This document shows positions 13,001-52,900 of a stretch of 64,000 nt of DNA, one piece after another. This DNA comes from Amoebophrya sp. A120. Taxonomy: Eukaryota; Protista; Dinoflagellata. A program made the position numbers and the translations under genes. Numbering within the stretch: position 1 is the stretch's first letter; each line of letters begins with the position of its first letter. The stretch is from assembly GCA_905178155.1 (NCBI GenBank), contig CAJINV010000003.1, forward strand, positions 7,398,601 to 7,462,600, read 5' to 3'. Under the pieces are notes generated by a model. It searched no databases and was not told where the DNA came from. It worked only from the letters and a program-made list of their open reading frames with translations.

Positions 13001-16000
13001 AAATACGAACACGATCAACCCAGTAAGAAAGCACTACCTTGACCATGACACTTGCTCGCAATCCAGTTCCGAGGTTGGACGGGCAGACGAGGACGTATCC
13101 CAAATGGTCATTGTGCATGAAGTCGTATCCCTCCGCTTTTACGACGTCCTGCACGGCGTTGCAGCCACTGACGAAGCGCTCGAAGACCTCTTTGATGTCG
13201 GCTCCCATCTGCATGGAGATGATCCTATCCCATCGAGAAAAAGCTAGAACCGAGACCGATCATGTACATGCGGCGCTGTTTCAGATGCAATTAAAAAAAA
13301 AGCTTAATATGTTGAGTTCGAGAAAGTAGTAATTGTAATTCCGCGATGATCCCATCAACCTGGGCCGCCGCGGGGAGCCCATAGCACTAAGCCGCCGTCC
13401 AAACCATGCAAAAACGACATTTGTTTCCGATAATTTTTCCGCTGTCCAGCTTCCTTTTTTAGTTACCCAGCGGATGTTGGAGTGGATCCTCGTTCCGCTT
13501 TTTTCATCTCTGGGATACATTCGGGTGTGGTCCTCCTCGTTGACCCAGACCAGGAAGTTCTTTTTGTCGTTGAAGAAAATACCGCGGGCGTCCGGCCAGT
13601 GCCGACCCATGCCCCCGGAGAGCAGCAGCGTGGAGTCCGGCTCCTGAAAGAGGAAATGCTCTTTGCGCAAGGTTTCCTCCTCCTCGTAGGTGATCCCGTT
13701 CGGCTTGGGTTCGTAGGACTTGCTGCCCGCGAGCGGGTAGTAGTCGCCCTTCAGGTCCCCGTCCAGCGTCATCAGCGCCTTGACCACGACGCGCTCCAGC
13801 TCGCGGCGGCCCTCCTTCGTGCACGCCGGCGGCAGCAGGATACCCCGGATGCTGCGGCCGGTCCGCACGCGAGTCGAAATCACGTACTCGCCGGTGGGAT
13901 CGATGGAGGTCGTGGACAATTTAGAAACATCCATGTCAGTCGGATGCTTTGCGGTTTTGGCATACCTGTATTCACGTTGGTTCTTTCTCGTCGTGACCCG
14001 ATGCTGTCTGTCATCTTCATCCGCGAGGCAAAAGCTGGAAACTTGTTGTATACAATGCTGCGTGGTATCAGACTATCTGTACTACTTATGTGCAGATCAT
14101 ACAGTAGACAACTTCCAGACAGGAGCCGTGGCACTTTTCTGCAACTGACGTATGTAGTAGTCTTTACTCTGTGGCAGCACTTGCACTAGCGCCACAAAGT
14201 GCTTCATATAAATTGGCCGCCGCCGCGCCACAAATCGACAAAACATTTGAGTTGTACAGCTCCCTTTGCACAACTGAAACTGATGAACTGCACGAAGGAG
14301 CAGAATAAAGTGAGAAGTTGCTCACCGAGAAGATCGCGCCCTTATTCAATGTCAATCTTTCTTTTGGATGAAACTGTGATGAATAAAGTTGCGGCGTCAA
14401 CATCAATGCTGTACCCTCCGTGGCGAATGTCGATAACGGGATCGAAGTATGAGATTGCAAAACTCGCCCTCCCCCTCACTTGAGTGGCATGAACAGCAAC
14501 ACAAGCATTGGCAGAAGTGTGGCCTCCGCATGACAAATTGCAGTGCGGTTTGGATGAAACTTGTCATGCTAAACAGAAGTGCGGCACACTTTGCCTCCCC
14601 CTTTGCAAACGGCCGCAGATGGCTGTCACGCAGGGAAGGTAGGTCAGGCGGACACCGAAGTGCACAACAAGGTCAGGCGGACACCGAAGGATGAAACTTG
14701 TCATGCACAACAGACCTAAGAGGGAACGAGTGGACATGGTATTTTCCATGACAAATGAGGGAAAGGGGAAGTTGTGCAGTCTCATACGAAGAGGTCGGCA
14801 AACACAGTCCAGGACTCCTCGTCTCCGGCCACGCAACCGCAAGTCTTGATCATCGGGTGTCCTTTGTTGTCCATGCCGGTCTTGATGCACCGCGCGAACG
14901 TCACCCCTCCGGCAGTATGGAGTTCTCGAGCGTTACAGTGTCCTCTGTTGGCTACACACACTTGCGGTGCAATAACAAAATGAACAATGAAACCCCTAAT
15001 TAATAGCTCGTAGAGCCGTGTCATCTTCCACCATGAAAGAGTGAAAGGGGGAGCTTGCTCCTCTCGCATCAAAACTTACTTCGGCACAGAGAGACATCAA
15101 TCCTGTTTGGACATGCGAAGTAGCTTGATTGCGTGGGCGTGGTGCTGGCGGCTGATGGCGATTTTGGATGAAACAGCAAGCAACCAGCTAGCAATGTAAC
15201 GTTATTTGAGAATCTCATGCATAGCTAGTAACTTTGTCCTTTAGATTTGCATAAAGCGTCGGGTCCTTCTTCAGTACGTCGGTCATGATGCTGTGAGAGT
15301 CGAGTAGTTATTTGAGGACTTACAAGCGAAAGACCGCACCTGTGGCTTTGGATGGCAGCGAGTTTTGCATTTTTTATTGCAAGCTGGTTGCACTTCGTTC
15401 ATATGCGGCTGATGCTACGTACTGGGAAAGAGAAAAAGAAAAAGTGGGCAGCGGCAAGAATACGTAGGAACAAATTTAGACGTACCTATTGTGGTTTGAG
15501 AGGTCCGGGCACTCGTCCGGGCACACGTCGTGGGGGAAGCCGGGATACTCCTCATCCCCGAGGCCGGGCATGAATTCGTAGATAAACTCGCCCTTTTCCA
15601 GTGCCTGCTCCATCTGCACAATCTTCGCGCAACCACTGATCATGTTGTTCACCAGCGTCACCTCGGATTTTCCGAGGCGGTCCGAGTTAGAGATGTCGAA
15701 GATGCCGCCAACAGCCGCACTGTCGACGCCCGCACCACCCCGCGCCTGCAGACCCATGCCCTTGCAGATATCCTTGAAATCGTGTCGCGCGGAGAGGAGC
15801 GGAATCTTAACCATCACGCTGGCGCGCAACCCGGTTCCGAGGTTAGACGGGCAGACGAGGACGTATCCCAAATGGTCGTTGTGCATGAAGTCGTACCCCT
15901 CCGCCTTGACGACATCCTGCACGGCGTTGCAACCCGTCGCAAACCGGGTGAACACTTCCTTGATGTCGCATCCTGTGCAAAAACGATCATGTTCCAGAAG

Positions 16001-19000
16001 TAGCAAAGTGGGCATTTCAGGAAGTACCTACACCGAGAAGCTTTGGCTGTTCGTCGTGCAGGACATAAACAGGCTGCGCGGCTGCACAGAAGGATCTTTC
16101 ACACTTGCGGGCAATTTGAGGCTGCTGCGCGTGACAAGTTTGGTTTCGCCATGCAGCAAGCGTCTGTAGCTAGTGCAGCTGCATCGCATTCGCAGATTTA
16201 TACTCATATAAATGATCCTAGTATAACAAACTGCCAGACAGCATCAGAAACAGAGAATGCTCCTCATTGGGCTGCGCATGAGAAAAATCCTGAGCATCAG
16301 CCTCAGCATGCAAACTTGCATGACAAATCTGAGGTGGGGGACCTCCAGACCACGTTTTTACAAGGATATGTCGGCGCCCATCTGCATGGAAATAATCCTG
16401 GTGTGGTCCTCCTCGTTCACCCAGACGAGGAAGTTCTTCTTGTCGTTGTGAAAGATACCTCAACTATGCAAAGCAAAATTTCCTTCTTGACAGTTTCACA
16501 TCAGGTTCGTTCCTGGAGCCGCAACCTTGTTCAGATCAGCTGTCTGCCACACGTAAAATTAATGCGCAGGAGCACACACGTTCGGTGACCTCACTACATA
16601 CGATCTCATCGTGGTCCTCGTAGATGATAATAGATTTGTCAAGTCAGTGTTAGTTGCTGAATCAATCAGGAAAAATGTGTAACTGTAAATAGGCTTTTCT
16701 GGTGGGATACCGACCCTCGGGCCAGTGTCGGCCCATACCGCCCGACAGCAATAGAGTGGAATCAGGTTCCTGTTCCATTGATTTTCATCAATTTTGCGTT
16801 TTGTGCTCGAAGTTCTATGTATACACCCGTCGTTTCTTGTCATCAACAGCATCACCACTGTTAGTAAAACTAGAATCGCCCTGGCAAGAACAGTGATAAA
16901 CATATAACTCAAACAGATGTATCAGGGTGCTTCAAAAACTAGACGGCTGGGAAGAGGGCTACTTACATATCTTCACTGTGGAGAGGTGGACCATAAAACC
17001 TATAGAAAAGTGAAGTACTTGGAAGAGGAAATGGTCTTCGCGCTTCCGTTATGAAATGCAAAGTTGTCTGGATCGGAAAAATTATGCTAATATTTGGATA
17101 ACGAGAAAACTCCGATACGGAACTCCTCGGCATGACAAGTTTTTCCGCGACAGCGTCTTGGGTAGATCGCATGGCATGAGCATGACATTGACACGCACAG
17201 GCACACGCTCACCCTCACGCCCCGCTTTTGCATGACAAATGAATGACTGACACCGCGTCGCATCAACATGGAATATAGAGTTTTGACTCGTGTTGTCAGA
17301 AATATTTATGGCATTTCGAGTCACACAAGCTTGCAGACCCAGACCGGTATAGTTGATTTGATATCTGCTCCTCCTCTTCCATCGTCATGCCCGTTGGCTT
17401 CGGGGCGTAGGACGTCGACCCTGCGAGCGGATAGTAGTCGCCCTTGAGTTCGTATGGAGGGTCACTCAATTGTACTATCACTGTTTTCCAACTTTCGCAT
17501 CCAAAATACTTAAGTAAATGTGCCCACCATGTCGCGTTTGCAGAAAGACAACAGATGAAATCTCCGTGTGCCAAGAATTGAATGTTGCTTCTTGTCTTTT
17601 AAGGATTTTGTAGTAATGCTTGAAATGCGAAACTGTATGTAGTGACGGTCATTCTCATTTCTTCTTACATAGTTCGCCCTCCAGCGACATCAGCGCTTTG
17701 ATTCTTGCAGAGAAATGTGCCCCACCTTCCGAAAAAAAAATGCAGAAAGCCTCGCCATGACATCCAATTTCTCATGTTCGACAGATGAAAGAGCGAGCTC
17801 GCTGTCCCAACTTCTGGAACTGGTGAAAATTTTAACTTGTCTCTATCTGACAATTATCTCCCCGGGAAGGGTTTTTTCTCAACGTGATACTCACCACGAC
17901 GCGCTCCAGCTCCTTCCTGGAGTCCCGGGTGTGGCTTGGAGGCAAAACGATGCCACGAATGCTGCGGCCGGTCCGGACGCGGGTAGAGATAACGTAGTTT
18001 GTATCGAGGTAAAAATCTCTGAGTGACAACTCATTTACAGAGTCGCAACAACGCTCGCCGGGCGCGCAAAAAAAATCACGGTTATCGTGCTTCGCAGACA
18101 CTCCTTTTGCAGCATTTTTTGCCCGGCAGGCTGTAAAATGTAAATGTCATTCTTGTTTCCCTTCATTGCGTTTTGCACGAGACCAGTGTCGTCCGAAGGA
18201 TGAAGAGGAGAACCAACGGCCCCTCGGGCAGAAGTACTAATTTAAATATAAGTACTTATTTCTGCAGCTGGTCAAAAATGCACAGGAGCTACAGAAAGCC
18301 CGTCACAGTAGTAAACGAATGTCACACATCACTCCTTTCTCGTCAGTAACTTTATCAAATGTAAAAATGTCTGGGTCTGGAAACTTGTGATGCTGAGTGG
18401 CGTCTCATGATGAGGCCACAAATGCAAATGCTGGCTCAGCATGACAAGTTTCTGAGCTTCTATCTAGGTGTTGCCTATTCTGCATGACAAACTGCGTTCC
18501 TGCATCACAGAACAGTGGAGCTCTTGGGTGACGTGCATGACAGATTTAAGAGTCATGCCAGACAAGCATGACAAACATGCATTCTTCCAGACCCAGACAT
18601 ATTTGCATTTGATAAACTTCCCGTCGGGTCAATTTCTGTGTCCAGCAGTTTGGACACGTCCATGTCGGTTGGGTGTTTTGCGCTCGCAGGGTAGCTATCA
18701 AATGTAAAAATGTCCAGGTCTGGAAGAATGCAACTTGTGATGCTGCGTCTGCATTATGCAAAAATCTGTATTGCATGAACAGCAAAAGAGGTCTGGTTTT
18801 GGCCCCGGCGAGAGGGCATCTCTCATGCGGTATAGGCATCAGAAAGCCCTCACAAGATCTGTGATGCTAGGGCATGCATCGCAGACATCAGGAGTCATGC
18901 AAAATGTGCATGACAAACTTTGCATCCTTCCCGACCCAGACATTTTTACATTTGATAGTAGCCGCCATGCCGAATATCAATCACCGGATCGAACAACTCG

Positions 19001-21926
19001 GCAAACATGCTGAACGACTCTTCATCACCTGCGACGCAGCCGCACGTTTTCACCATCGGGTGCCCCTTGTTGTCCATTCCTGTATTTGCTTGTTTTGATT
19101 TCGTCGTGTTCATGATGAATCAGCACTTCTCACACGGCTGCCACCATAACTGCCCGCTTCATTCTTTGATTCTGTGCACTAAGTTGTAACAGTGACCATG
19201 TCGCGCGGCACGCTTCACTCTCATGTAGAAAACAAATGCACACGCAAATCTAGGACCAGCACACCACGCACAGGCATCACGGACAGACCTTTGCGAATTC
19301 GGGTCCGATTTATTTTCGGCTTGTTTGATGTAACAAGAAAGTTCTCAACATGACAAAGCCGGAAACGCACCAAATTCCACCTGCCCCTCTCTTTTATAAT
19401 AATTTCACGAAACTGCACCGCAATATGCTCCTAGTGCAACAAAATTCTTTTTGTTTTTAGTGATGCCACTATATAATTTACATCTACAGTACCTGTTTTG
19501 ATGATTCTGGCAAATCCCACACCCATGGCGGTACGCTTCTCCTTCAGGGTCGCGTAGATACTCGGGTCCTTTTTGAGGACATCGGCCACCTTCATCACAT
19601 TGCAAATCGTTCCTGGTCTGTTCGTGTACTTGTCTTCTTTCTGCGATTTTGCAAAAAGAACGAAATCTTGCGCGCGTGTTTTATTGGCCTGAAAAGTAAC
19701 GCTAACGTCATGCTCAGCCGCAGGGTAAGGGGCCCAAGAGAGAAATAGTTTTGCTGCCGTATCGATCATGGGAAATTGATTGGGGAAAGACAAGCAGGAA
19801 TGCAATTTTTGTTTCTGACGTTTCATTCCGGCTTCATGTTCATCCAAACGCACGACAAATACGACGTCCTAGACGGTGGATTTTCACAAATCATACTGAT
19901 GGAGGCGTGCTTGCTGAGGTCTGGCATTTCGTCCGGGCAAACGTCTGCCGGAAAGCCGGGGTACTCCTCGTCGATTGTATGAAATCAAAAACCGCTGCAG
20001 CTAACGTTTATAATTACGCTGTGCCCTCCGAATACGACTTTTTGCAGTTGCATTTGAAACTCTTCGAATTTCAATCAACTTGTTGATTCACGACCACCTG
20101 CAATGATCTTCAATGCCTCATATCGATTTCTGATTCTGTCTCGTCGCAGCCGACACACTACAACATTCTTAGGATGACTCACGTTATTAACGCAGACTAG
20201 GTACAGCACTGTTACTGTTGTGATACCCCAGACCCGGCATCGAAGCGTAGTCCGGTACGTTGCTCGGCACAATGGCAATGGATTCCTCTGCCGGCGCCTC
20301 TGCAGGTGCATCCGGATCCGCAGCCGCTGCGCGGGCCGAGGGGGATCCGGCGGGGGAGTCTTGTCCTTTTTGCTGCGACAGGTACGAAATCATAAATGCC
20401 AACGGATCGCCAGGCTGTTTCGCCAAAAGACCGTGAATCATGCTTTGCAACGTCCCTTGCACCTACAGTTTGAGAAATCACATCAATTCAAAAGAGCACT
20501 TGGCGCATGAGCATGTTCTTGTACGCGACAGGAAAATAACCGTCATCATCATAATCATCTTCATCATCAGGAACAGGATTATCAAAATTGGTGCTAACGT
20601 TTGGAGGGTGCCCCTGACCGCCCCCGCGCGGCCGCCCGCAGGCATAGCTATAAATTCTCATGCAAGTATATGATCTAGAATGCTAAAAAGGAATGCCGTT
20701 TCTGAGTACGATCGACGGCTGCACCGGCTCGGTCGCTGAAAAATGTGCACAGGTCCTCATGGAGTACGTTTTCTACTTCGTACAACCAAGAAAAATCGCT
20801 AGTAGTTGCGTAATATGCGACAACAACAGCGATGGAGAAGAGAATCATTGACGCATTGGCATTTGGGCTTGGGGCATCTTCAAAAATAAGTACAACGTTT
20901 TCACTTCTACTCATCCAGCAGAAACAGAAAAGCAAAAACAGGGATAGAACATATAGTATCATACCGCGTGTTCGTCCAGATATTTTGTGGCCTTCAGAGC
21001 CGATTCATGCCGGCTAGAGCGGGACTTGTTCACATCCTGTTTCTGGCTGTCCGACGTACAGCCCAGCGTGAGCTTGATGCCGCTCTCCATCTCCACGAGC
21101 TCGTGGAATTTATCACGGAGAAAAGTCATAAAAAGCTGGCATACAATATATATTTTTATCTCAACGAAGCTTTCATGCAAAAATGGTTCTGATTCTGAAG
21201 CTGCCGCGCATAAGTATGTATGTACCTCTGCACACTTGATGCCCATGACCAATTCGTTCGTGTTTTGAATAGCATAATATTACACAGTAGTTTTGGTTGT
21301 AAGCTAGCTTTTGTTTGCAGTGTCGTAGAACTGCGGGTCTGCTTTCATGGAGCTGAGCGGAACGATTTTTGATGCCACCTTCTGAAACACGTCCACCTTC
21401 ATGGTGGCGTGGTTGGACGTCGGAAATGGAAAGGGGGTCGCATCCGCACGAAACGGGGCCTGTCGCCGTTGTTCCCCGATCCGAAGAGTGTCAATCGGAA
21501 AACTAGTACGACCCTCAGCCAAGGAAGGCAACTACACGCTTGCGCGGCAAGACAATCTTACTACAGCACGACCTGCCCTTTTTTCTACATCTTCAAACAC
21601 GTCGAGCCTCCCTAGTAACCCAGTAGATTAGCACATAGCCAAATCGGTCTTGCACACATCACACACTAGCACCATCATGTGGGTAATATCTGTTAGTCTG
21701 CTATATTATACTTCAGCACGATGGAAGTGCACGATCAGTGTCCTCAGTTCTGCAACAGGAGGCGTCGCGAACTTCATCTCTTGGTTTTTTGTAGAAATCT
21801 TACGCAAAACAATCCTTTGCCTTTCCTGGCGGTCCACCGAGAGTGGCACCGGTTCTTTCCACGTCCATAAATAGACACGTAGGCCTTGTCCGGAAGCCCC
21901 TCGCCAGACACCACACTGACGTTCAT
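7046..21926 (-). CDS. Three-domain creatine-kinase-type phosphagen (ATP:guanidino) kinase with N-terminal C2-like and Dpy-30/RIIa-like regions; roughly 30 exons
   Basis: Three collinear copies of GMDNKGHPM(I/V)KTCGxVAGDEES, [32 protein letters not shown] and DISNSDRLG (domain 1 ~19975-15560, domain 2 ~15560-12510, domain 3 ~12510-7150). Upstream exons read KYLDEHAV|[27 protein letters not shown] and [18 protein letters not shown]...[11 protein letters not shown]. Start and stop are approximate. Confidence 0.92.
7942..8299. mobile_element. TA-ended introner in kinase domain 3
   Basis: Direct repeat CCACC; ends TATCAG...ACGATA; excision gives KSEV|DLVNNMIR. Confidence 0.85.
8334..8732. mobile_element. 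TA-ended introner in kinase domain 3
   Basis: Direct repeat TTCGA; excision gives DISN|SDRLG. Confidence 0.85.
9358..9732. mobile_element. TA-ended introner, decayed direct repeat
   Basis: CGTAG/CATAG flanks; excision gives KAEGY|DFMHN; right end resembles that of 62386-62570. Confidence 0.75.
9864..10230. mobile_element. TA-ended introner in kinase domain 3
   Basis: Direct repeat AGACC; excision gives NFLV|WVNEEDH. Confidence 0.85.
10269..10495. mobile_element. Family C introner
   Basis: TATCAGTGTGCAAAAC...GTTGTGCACTGTCATA; direct repeat TTCCG; excision gives DARG|IFFND. Confidence 0.88.
10648..10991. mobile_element. Family C introner, decayed direct repeat
   Basis: TATGAA...TTCATA; CCACG/CCGCG flanks; excision gives YYPLA|GSKSY. 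Confidence 0.8.
11468..11764. mobile_element. TA-ended introner with weak inverted repeat
   Basis: Direct repeat CCAGC; excision gives DISKL|DSTDIDP. Confidence 0.8.
11821..12082. mobile_element. Family A MITE-like introner
   Basis: ~34-bp near-perfect TIR TATCAAATGTAAAAGTGTCTGGGTCTGGAAGAAT; direct repeat CGCCG; excision gives DIRHG|[11 protein letters not shown]. Confidence 0.95.
13226..13517. mobile_element. Family D introner, decayed direct repeat
   Basis: TATCCCA...TGGGATA; flanks GATCC/CATTC; removal plus 5 nt gives EEDHTR|IISMQ. Confidence 0.75.
14448..14786. mobile_element. Family C introner
   Basis: TATGAGATTGCAAAACT...AGTTGTGCAGTCTCATA; direct repeat CGAAG; excision gives ADLF|DPVID; internal tandem duplication AGGTCAGGCGGACACCGAAG. 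Confidence 0.9.
15969..16368. mobile_element. Introner with CA...TA ends
   Basis: CATCCTGTGCAAAAACG...CGTTTTTACAAGGATA; direct repeat TGTCG; excision gives MGAD|IKEVF. Confidence 0.85.
16465..16709. mobile_element. TA-ended introner, decayed direct repeat
   Basis: Flanks TCAAC/CCGAC; removal plus 5 nt gives WPEGR|GIFHND. Confidence 0.7.
17050..17363. mobile_element. Degenerate family A introner
   Basis: TATGAAATGCAAAGTTGTCTGGATCGGAA...CAGACCCAGACC...TTTGATA; flanks TCCGT/TCTGC; removal gives EEEEQ|KREDHFLFQ. Confidence 0.75.
17453..17671. mobile_element. TA-ended introner in kinase domain 1
   Basis: Direct repeat GTTCG; excision gives LEGE|LKGDYYP. Confidence 0.8.
18353..18614. mobile_element. 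Family A element at an exon/intron boundary
   Basis: Family A TIRs; direct repeat AACTT. Excision alone runs into TGA, so it forms part of a longer intron ending near 18000. Confidence 0.88.
18696..18957. mobile_element. Family A MITE-like introner
   Basis: TATCAAATGTAAAAATGTC...GACATTTTTACATTTGATA; direct repeat GTAGC; excision gives DIRHGGY|PASAKHPTD. Confidence 0.95.
19978..20225. mobile_element. Old TA-ended intron, direct repeat lost
   Basis: TATGA...TGATA ends; flanks differ, but removal plus 5 nt gives MPGLG|DEEYPGF as in the two inter-domain junctions. Confidence 0.6.
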
Positions 21927-25700: not shown

Positions 25701-25852
25701 CGGGTTTGGACGGGCTTCGGGATTGCAGCCCCAAAAATCCAAGTGCATGCGAATTGTTTAGTTAGGCAGGGAAAAAACCGAATTGACAGGCTTCGCAAAG
25801 ATCCCCCGTGTACCAGCCAGACACAGAACGTGATCCGTATCCTGTTGATCAT
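22790..25852 (-). CDS. Hypothetical multi-exon membrane protein
   Basis: Minus-strand ORF pieces 25565-25852, 25187-25555 (two hydrophobic stretches), 24029-24319, 23635-23937, 22910-23182 that read as globular or transmembrane protein. Not assigned to a family. Confidence 0.5.
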
Positions 25853-27073: not shown

Positions 27074-30000
27074 TCACTTCAAGAATAAGCGTGTCTGAAA
27101 AACGATCTTCTGCAATCCTTCTATTCTATTTGTTTCTGCCACCAGGCCATTAAAATTGATTCCAACGTAGTTCATCTTCCTGTGTGATTTTGCATTGCCT
27201 CCTGCACGATAAGATAAGATCCACATCCAGACTTGTGATCTACAAGAATTTCCAGTGAATAGCTCTGCGGCATGCGCAAGGTCAGCTTCCTCGGCGTTCG
27301 CGTTCTCGTAGTCGCGCATTTCCACGTCATTCTCGTCGAAGTACTGTTGTAGGTTTCCCTGCATCACTGGCAAGCGCCCGTCCTCGCCATGTACAACCAG
27401 GTTTCCGAGCTTTCTTGGAACTACCACGTCGTCCTCTTCTGGCCCGACTTCGCAGAAAGCATCCTCATAGGCCGACGATGGCCGGTTTGTGTCGTTCGCC
27501 GCAGACACACAGGCCGACGTGGTCGCGCTTCCTGTACAGGACGGACCGGAAGAGGACGAGCTGCTGGATGATGTCCTTGACGTCCCGACCAGGTCGTTAT
27601 CCCTGTCGTCGCGGCCCGAAGTGCTGTTTGTTGTTGCACTAGCGTAGACATCACACTGGTCGTGGACAATTTTTGCGCGAGTTCTTCTACTCGGCGACGG
27701 CAAAGCAGCACGGCGCAGCCTGGGTAGAACTTGGTCACGAAAGAACAGCTGGGCGTCGCGGTAACCCTTTACCATGAACTCGCCGGGCACCCGCAGTCCC
27801 AAGCGGTCCTGTACCGGTCCCATAATCCTATCGCAGGCCTCTATCAGGCCCCAGGACCAACTGGCTCGATGGTTGTTTTTGCCGCGAAACAACAGCTTTA
27901 TTTTGAGGCACTTTGATCCTCCATCTTCGTGCACTTGCGTTTTCGTCCCCAGCGCTGCGCGCTTCTCGCTGCAGTAGAGATTGTTTCCGCTCCTTCCCCC
28001 GGGGTCGGATAAAAACGACTCACTCCAGTTGGAAACCACAGCGGAAGTCGCCAGAGCAGATTCCTCCGCGTTCGTAACAGCTGGTACAGCACATTCGCGG
28101 CTATGCTTCTGAGCATTTTTTCCAGGCGGCGCCATGTTCTCCCCGCTTTCGCCTGCATCGCGGAAGTACATCGAGGCAAAAAACTGCCGGAGCCCCGCTG
28201 AGAACCGGTCCTGCTCCCGCTCGCGCTCAGCAGCAGACCCTCCAGAAACATGATCTTCCTCTTCAAGGTCACAATTCTCATCTTTATGATTACGCATCAG
28301 GTCAGGGAACAGTCTTACCACGACTTCGGGTTGTTCCTCTCCGACCTGGTCATCTGCGAGTCGCGGCTGCTCGTCTTGGTGCCAATAGCCAGTGTGCTCC
28401 ATTTGCAACAGTTCGGCATCCATGTCGCGCCAGGAGTCTCGCTGCAGAGCCCGCAGCCAGCCTAGCTCGAACAATTGGCGCACGACGTCGACGCTCTCGT
28501 CGCGGCCGTCGACGAGACTCGGGGCCGGCGAGCAGAAACGAGTTGCCAGGTGGTTTCTCTTCTCACATTGCTGCGCCTCCACTCTGTCACTCTCGAGCGT
28601 GCGCAGCACATTCGACAGTAGACTGCAGGCGGCGCCGTTCGTGTAACGATCATCGTCCCCAGTATCAACCGCAAATATGTCTGCGTCAGGAAGAATGCAA
28701 GGTTTGTCATGCGTAGTTTGCATCACGCATGAACTACATGATGCCTTCAATGCATGACCATGACCGAGCATCACAGATTTTTATAAAACTTCCTGATGCC
28801 TATTCCGCATGACAAAAAATGCCCTCCCCACGTAGCACACACTGGACTGCTCTTACTTGCTGCTCATGCAATCCAAATCTTTTTCCAACCCAATCACAGC
28901 ATCACAAGTTGCAACCTTCCAGACCCAGACATATTTGCATTTGATACCCAGGCCGCTCCTCCAACTCCGCGTCAGAGGTCCCCTCAGCGGGGTCCATCAG
29001 CGGGACGAGACCGGACCCGCAAGACGACCTCTGCGCAGGCCACGAGTTTTTCCACGACTGTGGCTCTCTCTTCTGTTGGCACTGTCGTAGAAAGACGGCG
29101 AACGCCGCATGCGGGTTCTTTATATGTCTTTGACTTTCATCTTTTGCAACGAGCTGCACATCACGGCGCTGGCCGTCGCAGTCCTCCTCGCCGTCGGCAG
29201 AGACGGTCGTGGGCGGCTCGGCCTGAACCCCCAGATCCCAGAGTGTGTGCAGTAACCACGGATCCCTAGCCACCAAGGGGAGCAGCAGTGGATACATCCG
29301 CAGATGAAAGGCACACTTCCCCGTTGTGTGCTCGTAGGCGGGACCACAAGGCGGAGCCCGCAATAAAGTAGACCAGCGCACCAGATCCCACGATCCGGAC
29401 GGCCGGACGACCGAAATTCTGGCCGCGGCATCAGCACTATCTTCCTGCTGCTCCTCCGCTGCCCTCGTGCTGGCGAGGAGAAACCGCGGGGGTCCGCTGC
29501 GACTGCGGACACGCGATTTTTGCAAACCTCCGGTGACGGCAGAGAATGAATCTTCTTCCCGATGCAGCAGTGGAGACTCGCGATTTCTCATTCCAATCAC
29601 CACCTCTTCAGAACGCTCGTCGTTTCCGCAACCACCGTCGAACCCAACTTCGAGAAAAGTGTTCTTCTGCGAAAGTGTGTAGCTTCCTACTTGCAGCTCT
29701 CGTTTCTTTTTACATAGTACTGCTCCACCTTGAGGTTGTAGAAGTTCACTGCGAGGATCGTAATATTGCCGCGTTTCAGCAGGCAGTTCGCTTGTGTGGT
29801 GTTCATCCTGCACCAGGGTCTGCAAAGTCAAAGAATCGCTTTTCAACACCGCGCTAGCTTCTGGTGGACCGGGGGCAACTACATGACTTACTATTTTTGA
29901 CGGAGAAGTACCACTACGGGACGGAGGGGCCGGTCGTTCCGAGTACGGTAGTGCTCCTCCTCCTGCCCGCTCATCTCTGAGAAAGTCAAAACGGGGACCC

Positions 30001-33338: not shown

Positions 33339-33507
33339 GTTCGGGTTTGAGTTTCAAGTTCGAGTTGGAGTTTCAAGCCCGAGCTTGAGTTCCAAGCTCG
33401 AGTTTGAGTTTCAAGCTCGAGTTTGATTTTCAAGTTCGAGCTTGAGTTTCAAGCGCGAGCTTGAGTTTCAAGCTCGAGCTTGAGTTTCAAGCTCGAGCTT
33501 GAGTTTC
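33339..33507. repeat. Tandem array, 19-bp unit GAGTTTCAAGCTCGAGCTT, about 9 copies
   Basis: Period 19; consecutive units form the 16-bp palindrome TCAAGCTCGAGCTTGA. Confidence 0.92.
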
Positions 33508-33508
33508 C

Positions 33509-33955
33509 AGCCAAAAGTCGTCCGACGGCCGTCCGACGGCCAAAAGTCGTCCGACGGCCGTCGGACAGCCAAAAGTCGTCGGACGGCCGTCGGACGGCCA
33601 CAAGTCGTCCGACGGCCGTTGGAGAGCCAAAAGTCGTCCGACGGCTCAGTAGAAGTCGTCCGACGGCCGTCGGACAACCGAAAGTCGTCCGAAGGCCGTC
33701 GGACAGCCGAAAGTCGTCCGGCGACCGTCGGACAGCCAAAAGTCGCCCGACTGCTCCAAAGTTGTCCGACGGCCGTCGGACAGCTGAAAGTCATCCGGCG
33801 GCCGTCGGACAGCCAAAAGGCGTCCGACTGGTCCGAAGTTGTCCGACAGCCGTCGGACAGCCAAAAGTCGTGCCCGACGGCCCAGAAGTTGCCCGACGGC
33901 CGTTGGACCGCCAAGAATAGTCCGGCGGGTCAGAAGTTGTCCGACGCCGTCGAGT
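33509..33955. repeat. Tandem array, 29-bp unit CCAAAAGTCGTCCGACGGCCGTCGGACAG, about 15 copies, decaying rightward
   Basis: Period 29 with some shortened units; each unit holds the 16-bp palindrome TCCGACGGCCGTCGGA. Confidence 0.92.
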
Positions 33956-33969
33956 CACGTCCATGCACC

Positions 33970-34160
33970 TTCGGGGCCGGGTTGACCAGATTGGGCGCGC
34001 CGAAGCCGGGGCGACCAGATCGGAAACCCCGGGGCCGGGTCGACCGATCTGGGCGCGCCGGAGCCGGGACGACCAGATTGGGCTCGCCGGAAATGGAGGG
34101 ACCGAGCTGGGCGCGCCGGAGCCACGACAACGAATCACACTGGGCGTGCCGGAGCTACGT
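33970..34160. repeat. Degenerate GC-rich tandem array (TGGGCGCGCCGGAGCC-like units)
   Basis: About 5 recurrences of TGGGC(G/T)(C/T)GCCG, several preceded by GACC(A)GA. Confidence 0.7.
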
Positions 34161-35501
34161 TGTTTTGCTTTTGGGGCCGGCGCTTTTTTCTTTTTGATTT
34201 GGATCAACATGCTGATGCTAACTGACATTTGCATTGCTTCTATCTAATGCCTACTTCCACGCGAAGCTGGCTTTGCTAGTGGAGATACATCAGTTACAGT
34301 TTTGCAGCATTTTGAAGTACCAGTCAATAACAAAGACTACTAGAGCTAATTTTAGATCGTGACTTCCTTGCATTTTGATTTTTTTATCGGCTTAAGAATT
34401 TTTGGGACGTGGAAAGAAGCAGAGATGCGAGTAGAACGAGAGAAGTTGTAGAGAGGAGAGAGAAGGAACGGAATTCCTCGAGCTGCGCGAAGCTTTCTTG
34501 TTTATTTTCTAGCGGTCTGCTGGTAGTGAACGTCTTCGCCATCGCCTGAAGCACCGGCCTAAAACTACATCCCGCTTGCCGACAGGGTGCAGATCGAAGC
34601 GAATCCATCGCGGAAACGCAAAGAAGTCTGGTTGCCGCTGCCGCGACCAGCGTCATGGTTCGAATCGGCAGTACCAAAATACTATATTCACGGCGGTAGG
34701 AGAGAAATGATGAGAATTCTAGAGCGAACCAGAAGCCGTAAGGTTTTAGGTAAACTCAAAAACTCACCGATGGAAAACTTCTCTGAATCTTTAAAACAGG
34801 ATGTATTATCAGCCCAATTAGCTAGATACGAATTGAGCCAAACTGGAAAAGATCAACATCTCTATTGTGCCGTGAAGTCGTGTGCTCTGCCGATTCGTTT
34901 TGGTTTCGCCTACAATAGAAAGCTTCTGCATAGCCTTAATTTAATTCCAGTCTTCAGCGATCTTCTATCTCGTACCATAACAAACTGGTATTAGGTAATA
35001 TTACTCTATTTATACTTTTTTAAGGCACGACATAGAGGCGCAACAAGAATAACGGCTTTATTCCCTCGCAATATAAGTGCAGGTAGCTGGCGTTCTCCAC
35101 CTTTTACGCGAATTCATATTCATTTGCCACGGCGCTCAGTCACAATTAATACTTATACAGTTACAGCTCAGTACCACCTCCCGAAATAATCCTGGAGCTA
35201 ATAATTTGAATAAGCGGGAGGAGAGGCAAACACCACAAACAACGAAGAACAAGAAACAATATCAAAACAACAAAATAGAGTATAGTAAATATCAACGACG
35301 GAAAGTCGATGAGTGCCTTATGATCGTGTCAGGTAGAGCGGCCTCTGGTAATTTTTAAAGAAGCCTTCGGTCGTAAACTTGGTCGCAAACCACCTTCGCC
35401 TCCGTTCGTCGCAGTGGTGATCAATAGGTAACCTTTCATCTCCAGAACGGCAAATGAACCAGTCTACTTCGCAGCGTGTAGTTATCAGATTCGCACCCGT
35501 C

Positions 35502-36820: not shown

Positions 36821-36948
36821 GTAGGAGTACACAAGTCGCGCAATAGCAATATTACAACAGAGCTCCAACATAAATGCTTCCATTCCTCGGCTTCTCGTTG
36901 TCGTCCTTGTGCTCCTCGACGACAGAGATGTTGGTCGCGTTCAAATGT

Positions 36949-41500: not shown

Positions 41501-44500
41501 CTTTAGAAGAACAAGTACTCGCGCTTTTATTGCTTCTGCGACTGCGCCTGGACAGCTCGAGATCATTTTCTTGCTCACCACCATCATGAAGAGGAGCGCA
41601 GAAACCATGTAATTGACGAGCAGCCTCCTCACCACTGTTGGCTACTCCTGCACTAGCCGATGCTACACAACTGTTGACTTGCCGTTTTCGCAGCGCCTTC
41701 CTTGCCGCCCTAAGCTGCTTCTCCGCTGCGGCTCTGCGCTGCTGCTGGCGACGCAGCTGCCCCAGTAGGTCCTTGTTCGCCCGATGAAGAGTCTGCTCTG
41801 GAGACACGCACGACGAGATGAAGCCGCCGCTCACTATGGCAGCGACACCACACGCCAGGCCTATCGGGATCAGATAGGCCCGCGACCGCCCGATTGCGAT
41901 ATCGCTGAAGTCGATGGTGCGCAGCACATGGTGCTTCATCGGGCATGGAATTTTCGCCAGAATATTCAGAACGCCGTCAACCTCGCGATTTCCCGTCATC
42001 GTGTCTGCGGCCCAGTGTGCGATCGACGTCGGCTATCCTATGCAAAAACGTCCCCACCCCATAGTCAAGATGGGGATTTGGATACACAGAGCCAGCATCT
42101 TTTGGCTGTCGCGCAGGACAAAATTGGGCTCGCCGTGTCATCGCGTTTAGCTATTGTAGCTGCGCCACAAATCGATTGATTCCCTTATGCTGATTCTAGC
42201 ATGACAAACTACCAAACAGCATTACAGAATGCTCCTCATGGGGCTCTGCACCATCACCATCATGTAATGGACACCCACACACAGCGCCACGGGACAAAGA
42301 TCTCCTCCCCGGGGGGTGGGCGAGGATGAGGAAGCACTTTCGGCGACCTCATCTTCATACAAAAGCCAAGCGCTACCCCGGTAAGTCACCCGATAAAAAT
42401 TACTGACCAGTCGGGAACTACTTACCCACCACACCCGGCCAAGAAAGCCCAGCCGGCTAGCTAAGCGCGACTGCTGCCCCATACAGAATGATCCAGGACC
42501 CGACCCATTTCCCGCCATATGTTTTTGCTCTCACGGAAGAGACGACGCACCCCTTTAATTAAGGGGCGAGCCTCTCCCCTAAGCCGCTAACCCACTCGGA
42601 CAGGGGAGGCTTGGCCATTCGTGCCTTACCTGTGGCACGGACGAAGATATCAAGGGCACGGATCTTCACAGTTGTCAGGCAATAATTGGCCAGCTGTTTT
42701 TCACTGCTGAACCACAATGGGCACAGCGACAACTTAAGGCTTAGTTTGTGCGTGGCAATCAGAGTGCAGATTAGATTTGAGGCTTGCAGATTTGCATGAC
42801 AATTATAGTGTAGGGAGGTTTTTCCTCCGCATATCGGCTCCTGAAAATTCACAACGCGGTCATCATTCCAGGCCGACAACTTGGTCTGCAATTCCGGGCT
42901 GATATGGTAGACAGGCCACCAGTATCAAGTGTAAAAATGTCTGGGTCTGGAAGGATACAACTTGTGATGCTACTTTTGGAATCTACATAAAAACTGTATT
43001 GCAAGAACAGCAAAAGAGGTGTAATTTGTGCTACGCGGAGAGGGCATTTCTCATGCAGAATGGGCATCAGAAAGCCCTCGCACAATCTCTGATGCTAGGG
43101 CATGCATCACAGACCTCATGGGTCATGCAAAATCTGCATGACAAACTCCTGCATTCTTCCAGACCCAGACATTTTTGCAATCCATAACCAGTGCACTCCT
43201 GACGCATGTCGCGCGTGGCGCAGGCAGACGGGCTCCTGGGTCGCCTCATCCCTGAAAGCCTTCCAGATTAGTCCATCGTCGGAATCCGCATGCGCTTCCG
43301 GATCGGCGAAAATGTCGGAGCTCGTCGAACCGGTAGACTGGTTGCTGGCCTGCGGACGACCGGCACGAGAATTATCTTCTGCAGCAGGGGCATAAAAAGC
43401 ACCGCTACCGCCCCCGCCTTCGGAGGCCCCCACACTGCCGCCGGACTGACTACTAACCCAAGGCGGAGGTGTGCCAGCAGCTGCACTGCCCGCATCCGTC
43501 GGGGGCAGAGAGGAAGATGACGAGTAGGCTGCTGCCCCTGCGTTTGCTCTATGCTGTACAGAAGTACTATCGCACTCGTACTAAAACTAATCACCGCCAT
43601 CCATGCATCACAAATCTTTAGTTTTGTTTTTTTCTTAATTTCTATTTTTGTTCTTGAAAAAATTATATATTTGTGAAGCGTTTACTACTAGGGCGATGGT
43701 TCTGCCATGCATAAGCTCCTGCTGCACCTACTCCACTAGAAGCCCCGCCTGGTCCGCTGCCGGCTTGATCTTGTCCACTTGGTCGCGCCGCACTGCCATT
43801 GTTCACGACCACACCAGCCGCACGCGGCGCTCCTCCGGCGGACGCATTAGCGAAGTCAGCGCCACCAGTTACGACCCAGGGGGGCGGGGTGCCAGCACCC
43901 GCATATCCGTGCTCCGATACGCTCTTGTTGTCCATCCAACCTGTTCCAACGTCCCCTTTCAAAAGAAGAGACATAATACACTGGAGCTCCCCTCTCACCT
44001 CCTTCGAGAACCCTATGCATTGCAAATGCCTTTGGGTCTGGAAGCAAAAAAACGCACAAACTTGTGACGCGCATTATGGATGCCTGGATGTTGCCTAAGC
44101 TGCTGCTATTTTATTTAGAGAAAGCGGAACAATCCTCAGTCCGAACGCGTCGAAAAAGGGGGGGCCGCAATCCCCTCCTGGAACAGGAAAAAGTTTTTAC
44201 TCAAAAATCTACCAAAATAGTAGAGCCACTATAAAAATATGCAACTTTTGTTTTCATGCAGACTAGGCATGGGCAAGCCCCCCTGATGTGTGCACTCTAA
44301 ACCTTTTGTTGCTGTTCCCCTTCCTGCCCCAAAAACTGCATGAAACTACACAGGTGTCTGCTTTATTGTTCCAGAGGACCCAGACATATTTCCAACCGAT
44401 AAACCCGCCTAGGAGGATATCCGCGGTGTCTTCGCCCAATTCTGCCCCTAAAGCAGTCCTGCTCACGGCCACCAAGTTCCGCCGCGTCGAAAGCATGCGA

Positions 44501-46321: not shown

Positions 46322-46358
46322 AGACTTATCCTCAGGAAAGCCCCCACTTGCACTTTCT

Positions 46359-47305: not shown

Positions 47306-48458
47306 TCATCCGCGGCTGCTGAGAAGATGTAATAGGAACAAGATCTTCGTGGTCAGAAACGTGAGAACGGGGAGCAAGTAGAGCTCCTGGAGGCGTTGCA
47401 ACAGTTTGGATGATGTCCTCTCGGCGCCGAAGAGACGACGCCCCTCGTCCAGAAGTGGTCCTAGAAGGAGCAGAAGCTGCGGCCTCAGAAACTGCACCCG
47501 GCTGAGCTGCGGGGCCGGTATCTTCACGCTGTTCATGATCTGGCCAGAAGGACCGGACTTGGACCGCGTACACAGTGAGACGAGCGGGGCCGAAGTTCGT
47601 GTTAGAAGTACTACTATGGGTAGTCGTACTAGTTGTTGGGAACGTGACGCACAGAATCAGTCCCAGAATCACAGTCAGAAAGTTTGCGGATTGCGGATTG
47701 CGGTGGGGTTGGCGTGCCGGAACCATGAGGGTGCACTTTGGCTTGGCTTGGCTGGCTTGGCTGCTGGGGTGCCGTTCCGGAACTTTAAGAGTGCAGCCCC
47801 CGGAGCTCTTCATCATGTACTAAAACCGACTGATCCTCGCAGAAGTGGAATCGGGCGCGATACTGAAGAAGTTGTGAAGGAGCACCATGCGGCGCTAGTG
47901 TAAGTCGTTGTGGTTCGAGAGCGAGACCATCTCGCTGCAGCTGAAAATGAGCAGTAATTTTTTATGTTTTGCGCCGGCTTTCCAGTTTCACGAGTATGCG
48001 GAGCCTTACGTTCTTGAAGTCATGATGTAGTGTCCGTCACACACAAGCTACGAACAGAATAAACTGAACAAAATTAGTCCTGGTAACCGCAAAACGCTTC
48101 TCTTTTGGATGGAGGTTCTAAAAACGCTAATAGAAGGACGTGACTCAGACAACATTTGCGATCTCCACAAGTACTACTTTTCCGCACGCACTATCTCGAA
48201 ATTGATGCAGCGTTTGATTGAATGTGCGAATTTTCTTCGATCAAGCATGCCCGCATATCAACGTTATAAAAAGATCATAATACGTAGAGGAGGTACTTGA
48301 TGATCGCGACCTGTGTCTTTCGATCCGCTGCAGGAACTATCCTAGCTTTTTTCAAACGGCGTCCACACTACAGTAATAACTTTTACTCTAACTGAATTCT
48401 GCAGATCAAGGCGTCTGCGTTGAAGCTGTGAACGTGAACCTTCTATTGCCTTTGCCAG

Positions 48459-49433
48459 CGGTCAATCACAATAAGATCAAAATAGAACCCTAAATCCATA
48501 AACCCTTCCAACCCTTCGAAACCCTTTTCGACGCTGGCGAAGGAACCGGGGCGTAGGAAGATGAATCGGGGGAGAAGAACAGGAAACCGCACTGATCAGA
48601 GAGAGTGTGCACAAAAACGCATGGTAAGACCTAAAGGTTTTAACTCAAGCAAAATACCCACATAGGACACCGGAGGGTGTCATGTCCCGAACCACAAAAA
48701 AATCCTGCTTGGTGCCAGTAGGGCCCGGGGAAAGCAAAAGAGCAGCACAAGGAAGGAAAAGTAAAATCTACTTTCAAAAAGCGCTAATAAAGCCTTTTGC
48801 TCTGATCCGTCCGGGTGTGCACTCCCATCTGGTTCTAAAGCTTCAGCAGTGCTGAGAGCGCTCCGACCCTAAACCTCCTGGCCAAAGCCAAAAGATCTAC
48901 GTACGTATGCGCACGAGCAAGGCAGGAACATCGCCTGATGTGGACGATGTTCCTAAACTAAAAACAAAAAACGACTCTCAGACCGGAGGTAGCCTCACGG
49001 TAGTCGATGCGAGCGAAGGGCGCGAGGAGCGAAGCGAGAGCGAAAGCGAGAATGAGAGCAAAATCGAGACGAGAGCGAAAATCGAGGGCAAAAATCGAGA
49101 ATCGAATTCGAGGATCGAGAGATAAAGGAAGGAATCGACAAAAACGAATTTGCGCTCGATAGTGAAACGGAAACGCGAACAATATCGAAAACGAGATATC
49201 GAAAACGAGAAGTCTCTCTTTTCTCGGAGACGAAGCGAGAGAGAGAGAAACTCACATATCAGGATGTTGCAATTTTACATCCATGTTTTTCATTTTGATT
49301 TGATATACCAAAAAAAGTCAAGCAGGTCAAAAGTTTCAACAAGTCAGAAGGCATTTTTATAAATTGTGATCAGCCCAGATATCATGCATAAGCACAATGT
49401 CATGTTAGTTATGACGGTCAATCACAATAAGAT
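48459..49433. repeat. Segment bracketed by 19-bp perfect direct repeats
   Basis: CGGTCAATCACAATAAGAT at 48459-48477 and 49415-49433; purine-rich GAGCGAA/AATCGAG low-complexity tract at ~49010-49250 inside. Confidence 0.75.
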
Positions 49434-49930
49434 TCGTAACTTTGACACCAGCAAGAAGAGACTTTGCATCAAGGCTGTGTATTCTTCGAAGCTGAAAAAT
49501 GATGGCTGCTCCTGCTTCGAATTCTTGAAATCTGATTCATTCCGTTCATGTGGACATGCACAAGGTGGATGGCGCGAGTTTTTCTCTTTGTCTTTTGTCA
49601 TCTTGGGCGTGCCTCTGTCGATATCGATCTTGACACCAATGCTAAGAAACACTGGAACGCTAGGCACTATGATCTCTAATTAAAGTGATAGCGACGAGCA
49701 CCTCTTGACCGTCCATACTTTTTGGAGTAACAGACTTAGCCGTTTTGCATTTCTGACATTTGTTATGTGGTGGCACGGCGGACCCTCTTACTTCTGAAAC
49801 CCTCGGTAAACAGCTGCGGCTTCGCTGTACTTCACAGACTGGAACCCGACTAGGAGAGAGCAGTGTGGACACCTGTTGCACAAATGGTGAATTATTCCCG
49901 AAGAAAGTTAGCAGCTCGGCACCGCAGCTG

Positions 49931-52900
49931 CTACTGCTGCTTCACACCTTTACAGCGGGAATTCATCGTCGGCAGAGATTCATTTTCCAGGTATAGCTCT
50001 TTATGAGCAGCCCATCCGGCCCTCTCCTTGTGCCGATCAAACAAGTCCCGTAGCGCCGCAACATAACGCGTGTGCAGGTCTTCTACCTGTGCTGCGGTGG
50101 GGTAGAAGCCTTCCGTGCCGATGTTATGGCTTTCCATCCCTGGTGTTTCTCCATGTTGTTGTTCTTGTGGTCGTGAGGTAAAATCATAGTTCTCTTGTTG
50201 CGCTTTGCAACCATCGTTTGGGAGATCTTCCCCAGGGGATCGAGCATGCTGTCCGTCGTGCCTCACGACCGGAGCGATCGGCTTCCCAATATGCACTGCA
50301 AATATGTTTGCGTCTGGAAGGATGCAAATCCAAACTGTGTGTGATGCCGTCTTTAGATTCTAAAAAAAGTAGTATTGCATGACCAGCAGTTTGTGCTACG
50401 CGGACGCGGAGAGGGCTTTTCTCATGTGGATTAGGCATCAGGATCCCTCTCAACATCTGTGATGCTAGGTCATGCATTACAGGCATCATGCTGATGCCAT
50501 GAACATGATGGGTCATACAAAATATGCATGACCAACCTGGCAATCTTCCAGACCCAGACATATTTGCACTCGTACCCAATGCAAACCACCAATTTCCGTC
50601 GGTATGGTATCGGGCCGAATGGAATGCCGAAGCGGTCGGTCCAGTAAACCAGCGACGTTTAAAATGCACGAAAAAAAAAGTATCAGTAAGACACGAGAGC
50701 GAAGTCAAGGAAAAGGAATACGATGAAGCCGTGAGCATGACAATACTTGTCTAATATCAAAAAATATCTATATATTGCAAGAACGCAGGCTTCCTTGTGG
50801 TCGCGAGTAGTGCCCAAAAAACAGTATCAACAAGAGCGGTCGATACACATTCAACATACCTGTGTCACATTGATCTCGACGAAAGATCCCTGTCACGAAA
50901 CGCAAAATTACGTGGCCAGACCAAGACATTCACGTATAATTTATTCCCGCGAGGTGAAAACAAAATTCATCATGTTGGTCTCCCTGGACGAAGGCAAGCT
51001 GCGGAACTACGTGCATTTATTTTGAGACCTCTTTGATGTCTTAGTTTCATTTTTTCCTGCATATTTTCAGCTTCGAACTAACTCGGGCGAAGAAAGACCG
51101 GTGCGTGAATTTGCGATCGAAGATCTGATTCGCACCCATGCAGTAAACCGGAACCAGAAACGCGTTTGTTTGCAGAGCCACCTTGCAGAACCCCTGCCGC
51201 TTGCGGAGCACAATCTGTTCTTCTCCTTCGGTGCCGTAGAACATTTCCGTGATGCCACCCGGAAGCAGTGTGAGGAAGTTCTCCGGGAAAGGTCGTTGAA
51301 GGTTGCGCCGCAACTCCGAAGCAGAGACTTTCGTGAAGCCGAACTAGGTATCGTATTGAAAAACTGAAGGCCTCATTGCCCCAGGAGACAGCGCAGGCTC
51401 ATCCTGCAAATTATTGGCCCCAACACATCACTCGCTTTACTAGATGTTGGACGCATATAATTTTCATATTTATCACTCAACAGTGCAGATTTCTAAGGCA
51501 GGAAGATGAATAGGCACTGCGTTGTTGTAGCGGCCGCGAGGACCTGCTATAATACAAAAGCTGCCTTGCGTCTCCAGAAACCAGACAAGTAGGAAAGAGT
51601 CATAGTTCTTCTTCTTGCGTCCAAGTTAGTAGACTCATACAAGAATTTCAGTTTGGGTTTGCCTGTGACCGTTCGCAAGGGTGGCGCTGGGCATCAACTT
51701 TTCATCTTTATACCAGGCCAGAAACCGGCGCAGAAGTGGCAGTTTCGTCAACACATCCGCACCGGCAAAAAGCGGAAAAACCATCGGTCTGAAAAGAGGC
51801 CCTCCACCAGATCAAAGTACTTAATGCTTACACTGCAAAGCTCGCAGCGGGTGCAGCTGCCGTGTTTCAACGGCAGTACTTCAGACTCGTCCACCACTTC
51901 TCTTTCAGCTGCAGCATAGCGTACTCTTTAGGTGGAGCTTCGTCTTATTTCAAAGCTGAAGCTCTGGAAGGAAAGATCCACTCTGAACATACAATGTATG
52001 TATGTAACATACATACATACATACACGTTCCACGCGGCTTGCTTGCTTGCTTGGGTGCGCCCCATTCCTCGCAGCTCGCACTTCTGATGGTGAGACACCG
52101 CGAAAAACGGCCAATGCTGCACTTCTGATGGTGCACGTGAGGCTTGCCGCTGGTGCGGCGTCGGCTTATGTTCTTATGTTATTATACTCCCAACGGTGAA
52201 CGCAGCACCAGGAGCCCAAGCCAGACGAAAGGTGCTGAAGCCTGGCAACGAACCTTCTGGCTCTGCGAGAGGTTTGTGGTGCTCTAAATTTGGCCCTGTC
52301 TCCCGGAAAGCGATCCACCCAACGTAGTACGGGCGAGCAAGGGTGTGAAGGAACCCTCTGCGTTCGTGATGTGGACGAACGTCGCAAGAGGTGAAGAAGG
52401 ATCCTGGAGGTGCCTGGGCCGCCTTTTTCTGGGGGGGCGACTTAGAGCGCACCGGCGGGCTCTATATCCATGTTCCTGATGGCCGCATCAATGCGTCTTC
52501 GCTACGAGCGTCGTGTTGATTGATTTTGCCACGGTCTCCCAATGTCGGCGGCGGGCTACAAGCCTTGTGCCACGTTCATCATGCATCCTGCATTCTAGCG
52601 GATGCTACTACTCCAGCTCTTCACAGACAGAGAGAGGAGGAGGGGGGGGGTCTACTACGAGCAGGCCCCCGATGTCGGGGCAACCTCTACGGCAGCAACC
52701 GGAGGGCAGACGCGGACGCACGGGAAAGGCGCAGGCGCCAGCCCTGCGAGGGCCCTGCATGCGTCCACGCGCGTAAGTGAGAAACATCCGGGGCGCAGCC
52801 CAATCTTCCGGACGCGGGCCCATGGCTTTCTGGTGCTAGGTGGCAGGGAGGCGCATGGCAGTCGCGGGCCTTCGTGTCTCGAACATCTTTGCGCGCTCGC

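Follow-up and report, generated by a model that had tools for sequence, protein, structure and literature searches.

Where is an intron cut when it is itself a transposon and has no clear splicing signature? This question is raised by a 64,000-nucleotide (nt) stretch of DNA from the dinoflagellate Amoebophrya sp. A120 (contig CAJINV010000003.1, positions 7,398,601 to 7,462,600; hereafter the window), whose genes are interrupted by elements that begin TAT, end ATA and lie between 5-nt direct repeats. These are the known introner elements of Amoebophrya A120 (Farhat et al. 2021, PMC7789003), so the question at issue is their splice register. The text of that paper describes A120 introners as inverted repeats of a few hundred bases that start with TAT followed by an A-run, are flanked by short direct repeats (3-5 nt) and form strain-specific families. 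It reports that more than 60% of A120 introns have no clear splicing signature, that the position of the splice sites varies with respect to the hairpin and that the border "remains unknown," and it leaves open how the non-canonical introns are removed; its main text does not mention a lariat, polypyrimidine or a splicing branch point. A sentence on repeats four nucleotides upstream and Table S4 hint at a rule without stating it: all 18 "predominant" non-canonical motifs in the table (nine per strain) have T at +2, with a placement inside perfect repeats that depends on the aligner. A sequence-only reading of the window had proposed, from four elements, that each intron begins 1 nt before the first TA and ends 4 nt after the last.

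We find that a single register very probably accounts for the major product in the genes analyzed here: one cut lies 1 nt ahead of the first TA and the other 4 nt beyond the 3′ end of the element. We also think it likely that these introns, cut at N-TA...ATA-NNNN, are removed by the ordinary spliceosome, which would use an N-T-A donor and cut the 3′ side six bases past a predicted branch adenosine at position -7 (A-7), with no AG. The rule appears to be unpublished, the register, the N-T-A donor, A-7 and a positioned T-tract being apparently newly resolved for known elements. Neither a fixed register nor a branch position was found to be stated for these introns in the literature searched, which comprised the text of PMC7789003 without its figures and accessible parts of the introner and splicing papers PMC12130899, PMC9860276, PMC11282704, PMC12005148, PMC11453091, PMC13326754, bioRxiv 2020.10.14.339549 and PMC12501133.

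The window is A120 DNA, as three of its genes are each 100% identical, over the aligned part, to named A120 proteins:

6823-21926, minus strand: three-domain phosphagen (ATP:guanido) kinase gene, A120 GSA120T00017953001; 34 introns scored, 31 through the annotated protein and three through spliced contigs
49931-54082, minus strand: diacylglycerol acyltransferase (DGAT) gene; four introns, all of element type
56200-61081, minus strand: GAF-domain protein gene, used as a held-out test; 11 introns, eight of element type and three GT-AG

We mapped the three annotated proteins to the window, listed all compatible junctions and added introns seen only in contigs, giving 49 introns in total. For introns known from protein only, the NTA register was picked among the compatible ones. 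The final calls are protein- and contig-based; a profile-based element scan was abandoned since it mispaired many ends. The inverted ends start with TAT and then an A-run (consensus TATCAAATGGAAAAATG, from a profile over 38 introns), and the flanking 5-nt repeats match at four or five of five positions in 26 of the 38 element introns. The window contains 38 TAT...ATA pairs with a perfect 5-nt flanking repeat, whereas 100 resampled control windows averaged 4.6 such pairs and none had more than 10.

The register is described here by k, which counts how many bases of the upstream repeat copy belong to the intron; the rule proposed earlier is k=1. Junctions came from the contigs of three runs of one sample (X1, X2 and X3), which are spliced and whose RNA status is a guess made by software, with an unspliced, DNA-like run (X5) as control. 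We used the best 15 of 43 and the best 15 of 29 junction rows, setting aside one and five rows, respectively, that joined repeat copies. At least 24 introns are supported by contigs among the junctions listed, five of them GT-AG and 19 of element type. Eight of the 19 have perfect repeats, which do not fix k, one is nested, and 10 are informative:

6834-7143, minus strand: decayed element intron TTATGC...TATT-CCGG, terminal A changed to T; joint 6833>7144; k=1 or 2
7216-7452, minus strand: element intron TTATGC...GATA-TCCT, with neither GT nor AG in any register; joint 7215>7453; k=1-3
7457-7913, minus strand: element intron GTATGA...CATA-TCGC; joint 7217>7913 with one letter between; k=0 or 1
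9354-9733, minus strand: element intron GTACCA...GATA-CTAC; joint 9352>9733; k=0 or 1
10644-10992, minus strand: element intron GTATGA...CATA-CGTG; joint 10642>10992; k=0-2
16461-16710, minus strand: element intron GTATCC...CATA-GTTG, join GGT-CGA; joint 16460>16711 in X1-X3, absent from X5; k=1 or 2
17046-17364, minus strand: element intron ATATCA...CATA-ACGG, GT impossible; joint 17044>17364; k=0-2
17699-17890, minus strand: decayed element intron GTATCA...AAGA-ATCA; joint 17698>17891; k=1 or 2, counted from the 5′ TA
19589-19896, minus strand: decayed element intron GTATGA...GATG-AAGG, terminal A changed to G; joint 19588>19897, unambiguous; k=1 uniquely
19974-20226, minus strand: element intron GTATCA...CATA-CAAT, join CTG-GGC; joint 19973>20227, unambiguous, in X1-X3, absent from X5; k=1 uniquely

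The eight spliced introns with perfect repeats are as follows:

7938-8300, 8330-8733, 9860-10231 and 10265-10496, minus strand: spliced element introns
11464-11765, 11817-12083, 17449-17672 and 18692-18958, minus strand: spliced element introns

All 10 informative junctions are compatible with k=1, two of them with k=1 only, and no other single k is common to all. With random offsets, the probability of any common k is 1.5 × 10^-4, under a null that ignores protein selection. Thus the fixed junction put forward from sequence held when spliced contigs were read.

The alternative is that the junction floats within the repeat, the fixed offset being an effect of a small sample or of assembly, or that the joined contigs are DNA alleles free of the insertion. 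The Figure 3 legend of PMC7789003 calls the splice sites variable, and in the accessible data of PMC12130899 automated splice calls vary between A120 families (22 of 58 families). Several features of our material also weigh against a single register: contigs drop rare forms, so minor alternative cuts may go unseen, and they come from one sample; the tested genes are all on one strand; and two of the introns with perfect repeats, 7938-8300 and 9860-10231, could alternatively be taken as GT-AG introns with k=4. In addition, large A120 families in the PMC12130899 data have about 11% annotation-based GC or GA donors, for example 61 of 547 in fam16, which may reflect aligner placement inside perfect repeats. 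Against a floating junction stands the agreement of all 10 informative junctions. Within 16380-20520, one contig per run bears junctions and intron depth is near zero in X1-X3, while X5 runs unspliced and has none of the X1-X3 joints; the elements are removed from the contigs of X1-X3 yet present in X5. Since GT-AG introns are also missing from the contigs of X1-X3, we regard those contigs as mRNA-like, and we reject excision at the DNA level or insertion-free alleles on the same two observations. We therefore consider a floating junction highly improbable. Raw-read runs X7-X9 gave only 4, 3 and 39 partial reads over the region and no junctions.

The four elements on which the sequence-only reading was built lie where it placed them, in minus-strand genes, with TAT...ATA ends, and its codon logic was reproduced for all four at every offset. 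With k=0 the join at 13226 reads R-M-I, and with k=1-5 R-I-I; that at 16465 gives TGA at k≥3; that at 19978 loses the Gly at k≥2; and that at 51349 creates a stop at k≥2. Of the four exon joins predicted, CTG-GGC and GGT-CGA are read directly in the spliced contigs. CGA-ATC is supported indirectly, by the end of a contig piece and the annotated protein, and GCC-TGG at the protein level only:

13222-13518, minus strand: element intron GTATCC...GATA-GGAT, join CGA-ATC; contig piece ends at 13519 without mismatch, k=1-3; protein HTRIISM
51345-51713, minus strand: DGAT element intron GTATAA...GATA-CCTA, join GCC-TGG; annotated protein FLAWFGF, homologue FLVWMGY (same Trp); k=0 or 1

The repeat copies at 19978, TGGGG and CAATC, share none of their five bases and are thus a repeat by position only. 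As all four elements have G at +1, which makes a GT donor at k=1, they do not by themselves demonstrate an NT donor.

The wider intron set does. A start of N-T-A is compatible with contig or protein in all 49 introns of the three genes, 11 of them GT-AG and 38 of element type. The +1 base of the element introns is G in 16, A in eight, T in seven and C in seven, and thus non-G in 22 of 38; +4 is T in 32 and C in six. Moreover, seven of the 19 contig-supported element introns cannot carry GT in any register. The NT donor with invariant T at +2 was therefore correctly predicted, the actual donor being tighter, N-T-A-(T/C). The 11 GT-AG introns all begin GTA (seven GTAC, two GTAA, one GTAT and one GTAG), so both intron classes share +2T and +3A.

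An acceptor without AG, likewise predicted, is what the spliced contigs contain. At the fixed register, none of the 38 element introns ends in AG (introns reading GT-AG were classed separately), and their ends comprise 15 different dinucleotides. As a class, element introns do not follow the combination of GT or GC donor and AG acceptor of U2-type introns. The first exon base is G in 12, C in 11, A in 10 and T in five, a purine in 22 of 38.

One GT-AG intron, 19080-19492 (minus strand), is flanked by a perfect 5-nt repeat that also sits in the 1+4 register, and it has A at -7; it may derive from an old element inserted at a canonical site.

If no AG marks the 3′ cut, what does? In the version first proposed, the terminal TA is the ruler and its A, at -5, the branch point. 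That version has the register right, and the TA is intact in 30 of 38 element introns. However, -5 is G in four introns and T in two, contig-read junctions among them, and -6 is other than T in two. Where the contigs show such decay, the cut has not moved: 19589-19896 ends in TG plus four bases, uniquely, and 6834-7143 in TT plus four. As the terminal TA decays while the junction stays in place, it is not the ruler, and we give this version almost no weight.

In contrast to -5, the A at -7 is kept in all 38 element introns. This differs from A at -5 (32 of 38; Fisher p=0.025) and from the mirror position at the other end, T at +4 (32 of 38; swap test p=0.031). A T-tract at -15 to -18 is also better kept than its mirror, with 122 versus 103 of 152 positions (p=0.004); T-16 and T-17 persist in 34 and 33 of 38, compared to 25 and 26 for the mirror A. 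An omnibus test of strand asymmetry gave p=0.001, and p=0.006 without the first two positions. Thus the ends decay asymmetrically, the 5′ end retaining +2T and +3A and the 3′ end retaining A-7 and the T-tract. Such decay of a symmetric element points to selection on the RNA strand.

Asymmetry bears on a second explanation of the same register, in which the terminal hairpin determines it: the two ends would pair, and a machinery that recognizes the structure would cut 1 nt upstream and 4 nt downstream of the stem, as for the nonconventional introns of Euglena. Every element has inverted ends, the outer three terminal pairs persist in 36, 36 and 32 of the 38 element introns, and four of the six changes at -5 are to G, which preserves a U-G pair. 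In addition, Euglena has fixed spacers around a paired motif (PMC12501133, accessible text), and no U1 small nuclear RNA (snRNA) was detected in A120 according to the text of PMC7789003. However, the in-register terminal pair occurs in only 18 of 38 predicted folds and a fourth pair is possible in only 20, pairing alone does not predict strand-asymmetric decay, and the GT-AG introns have the same +2T/+3A start, with G the commonest +1 base in the element introns. We consider a hairpin-set register unlikely.

In the spliceosomal reading that we favor, the one U2-type spliceosome of A120 would read +2T/+3A at the donors of both intron classes. Element introns would then branch at the predicted A-7, and ligation would follow six bases on, independent of sequence. 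Each inverted end would carry both signals, the donor read forward (TAT...) and the T-tract with the branch A read as the complement (TTTT...ATA), so that insertion in either orientation would create a ready-made intron. As the 1+4 split would remove exactly one copy of the 5-nt duplication, a new insertion would leave the protein unchanged and be silent. The spacing has some precedent. Accessible parts of PMC2483917 describe fixed, short distances from branch to acceptor, 5 and 7 bases, in Yarrowia and in Trichomonas and Giardia, which bracket the six of A120, and according to those of PMC10711555, yeast spliceosomes without Prp18 can use non-YAG sites as little as 7 nt away from the branch, with upstream poly(U) assisting.

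Part of this reading, that a branch at -7 is the ruler of the 3′ cut, is a prediction from base conservation that we regard as evenly balanced, and a number of observations count against it. The role of A-7 was found post hoc and rests on conservation in 38 introns of three genes. In the GAF gene, where A-7 was predicted beforehand, it was kept in eight of eight introns, but ATA is whole in all eight, so that -7 and -5 are not separated. All six introns changed at +4 have C in place of T, and seven of the 11 canonical donors are GTAC; the changes may therefore be donor-driven, which weakens the mirror test. The GT-AG introns do not have the 3′ pattern, with A-7 in three and T-16 in two of 11. 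A spacing of six bases is one below the shortest yeast case cited, and the text of PMC7789003 lists Prp18 and Slu7 homologues in A120. TRAY occurs at -9 to -6 in only eight of 38 element introns, so U2 pairing would be weak (TNAY, 16 of 38). Finally, A-12 is also enriched (19 of 38, p=0.013).

The last two observations fit a third explanation, also spliceosomal and fixed. In it, A-7 and the T-tract together serve as a U2AF-type site, and the cut is placed by its distance from a branch farther upstream, such as one at -12 or -14. U2AF65 and U2AF35 homologues are present in A120 (text of PMC7789003), and altered U2AF has been implicated in tunicate non-GT/AG splicing (PMC13326754, accessible text). 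On the other side, A-7 is the sole invariant, whereas A-12 is present in half of the introns, and the spacing from A-7 falls between the known fixed spacings (PMC2483917). A U2AF-type site seems to us no more probable than a hairpin-set register, and we retain branching at A-7 as the favored form of the spliceosomal reading.

If each inverted end carries both signals, introns should arise from both orientations of one element. An element family of about 260 nt has eight to nine copies in the window with 67-84% identity, in both orientations relative to transcription:

1500-1755, 11821-12082, 18696-18957 and 28663-28946: first four copies
42923-43186, 50294-50574, 56882-57149 and 58931-59195: last four copies

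Two copies of one orientation are spliced in contigs, and two of the opposite orientation are introns by protein mapping, as expected from signals in each end. The four elements of the sequence-only reading have no relatives within the window.

A nested pair combines two insertions in one intron:

17998-18616, minus strand: nested intron, an old element T-TAC...GATA-CAAA whose donor is split between +1 and +2 by a young element; joint 17997>18617, unambiguous
18349-18615, minus strand: inner young element intron TTATCA...GATA-AAGT, the predicted first step, with perfect repeat AAGTT and a putative junction of its own

The final product, 17997>18617, equals two rounds of the rule acting through a predicted intermediate. 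Removal of the pair in a single step, with the cut at the inner NTA, was rejected, since it would cause a frameshift.

The register also affects annotation of the kinase gene, where two element introns enclose a very short exon:

7453-7456, minus strand: 4-nt microexon between two element introns (3-6 nt in other registers), in contigs; it restores RGCAAF as in the A25 orthologue

The public kinase annotation misses this microexon and ends out of frame; the contigs restore a C terminus that matches the A25 orthologue.

In the DGAT gene, the 1,677-nt intron 51778-53454 (minus strand) has a 5′ inverted end that matches an inner end at 53239 and not its own 3′ end. The intron also contains a duplicated unit (about 44 nt) and, near 51945, another similar end. 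It looks like the product of nested or rearranged insertions.

Other observations concern the window at large. At 62386-62570 (minus strand), a candidate element in a protein-kinase gene, not included in our counts, has a TAC 5′ end and an intact GATA 3′ end and fits the asymmetry described above. An intron lies within a few bases of the RHGGY motif in each kinase domain, at slightly different positions (11817-12083, 13966-14414 and 18692-18958, minus strand). The minus strand carries every gene mapped in the window, consistent with the unidirectional clusters described for the genus, and no plus-strand gene on which the rule could be tested was found in the window. A GC-rich, tandem-repetitive stretch at 33470-34240 has long open frames on both strands, and an Rfam search of the window gave no matches.

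A single register would give a precise code to introns published without a signature, and it predicts one branch position. It would explain how a symmetric transposon invades genes in both orientations at no cost, and it would permit correction of annotation, the end of one protein, the kinase, being already fixed. If the branch reading is true, A120 would be a case of a natural spliceosome that chooses 3′ ends by distance alone. The broadest formulation, which we hold tentatively and place a shade below an even call, is that a spliceosome apparently without U1 snRNA may define tens of thousands of introns by N-T-A-Y...T-tract...A(-7)-N6, with no acceptor dinucleotide. One transposon end would serve as donor on one strand and as branch signal on the other, and insertions in either orientation, even in the donor of another intron, would be spliced without a scar.

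Parts of this design have counterparts in other systems, as described in the accessible portions of the papers cited. Like the A120 elements, introners with terminal inverted repeats (TIRs) and target-site duplications (TSDs) are non-autonomous, duplicate their target and leave mRNA length unchanged (Gozashti 2022, PMC9860276; 2025, PMC12130899). However, the examples described there carry or co-opt GY/AG-type sites, whereas A120 makes both cuts inside the duplication and needs no acceptor dinucleotide. Non-GT/AG introns of Fritillaria borealis also derive from miniature inverted-repeat transposable elements with TIRs and TSDs and are excised by a U2-type spliceosome with relaxed ends (PMC11282704, PMC13326754). 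In Fritillaria, however, the ends are mostly AG-AC or AG-AT and U1 is conserved, while A120 has NT-NN ends and no detected U1.

Nonconventional introns of Euglena resemble those of A120 in having fixed, unequal spacers from the cuts to an inverted motif and free terminal dinucleotides, and in coexisting with GT-AG introns (PMC12501133). The Euglena spacers are 3 and 5-6 nt around CAG/CTG, and a purine opens the next exon; in A120 they are 1 and 4 nt around TAT/ATA, with no purine rule and a start common to GT-AG introns. The Euglena-type arrangement, CAG/CTG at +4 and -8 to -6 and a purine after the 3′ cut, is not that of the A120 elements, which end in TAT/ATA. In fungal [D1,2] stwintrons, as at 17998-18616 of our window, an inner intron splits the donor of an outer one (PMC8469720), but these are canonical U2 introns without target duplications, while both members of the A120 pair are TIR/TSD elements. 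Lastly, introns of Yarrowia lipolytica, Trichomonas and Giardia place the 3′ cut a set distance after the branch A (5 and 7 bases), as A120 would at six if A-7 is the branch (PMC2483917). Those introns retain ACTAAC and a terminal AG, whereas the A120 element introns have neither.

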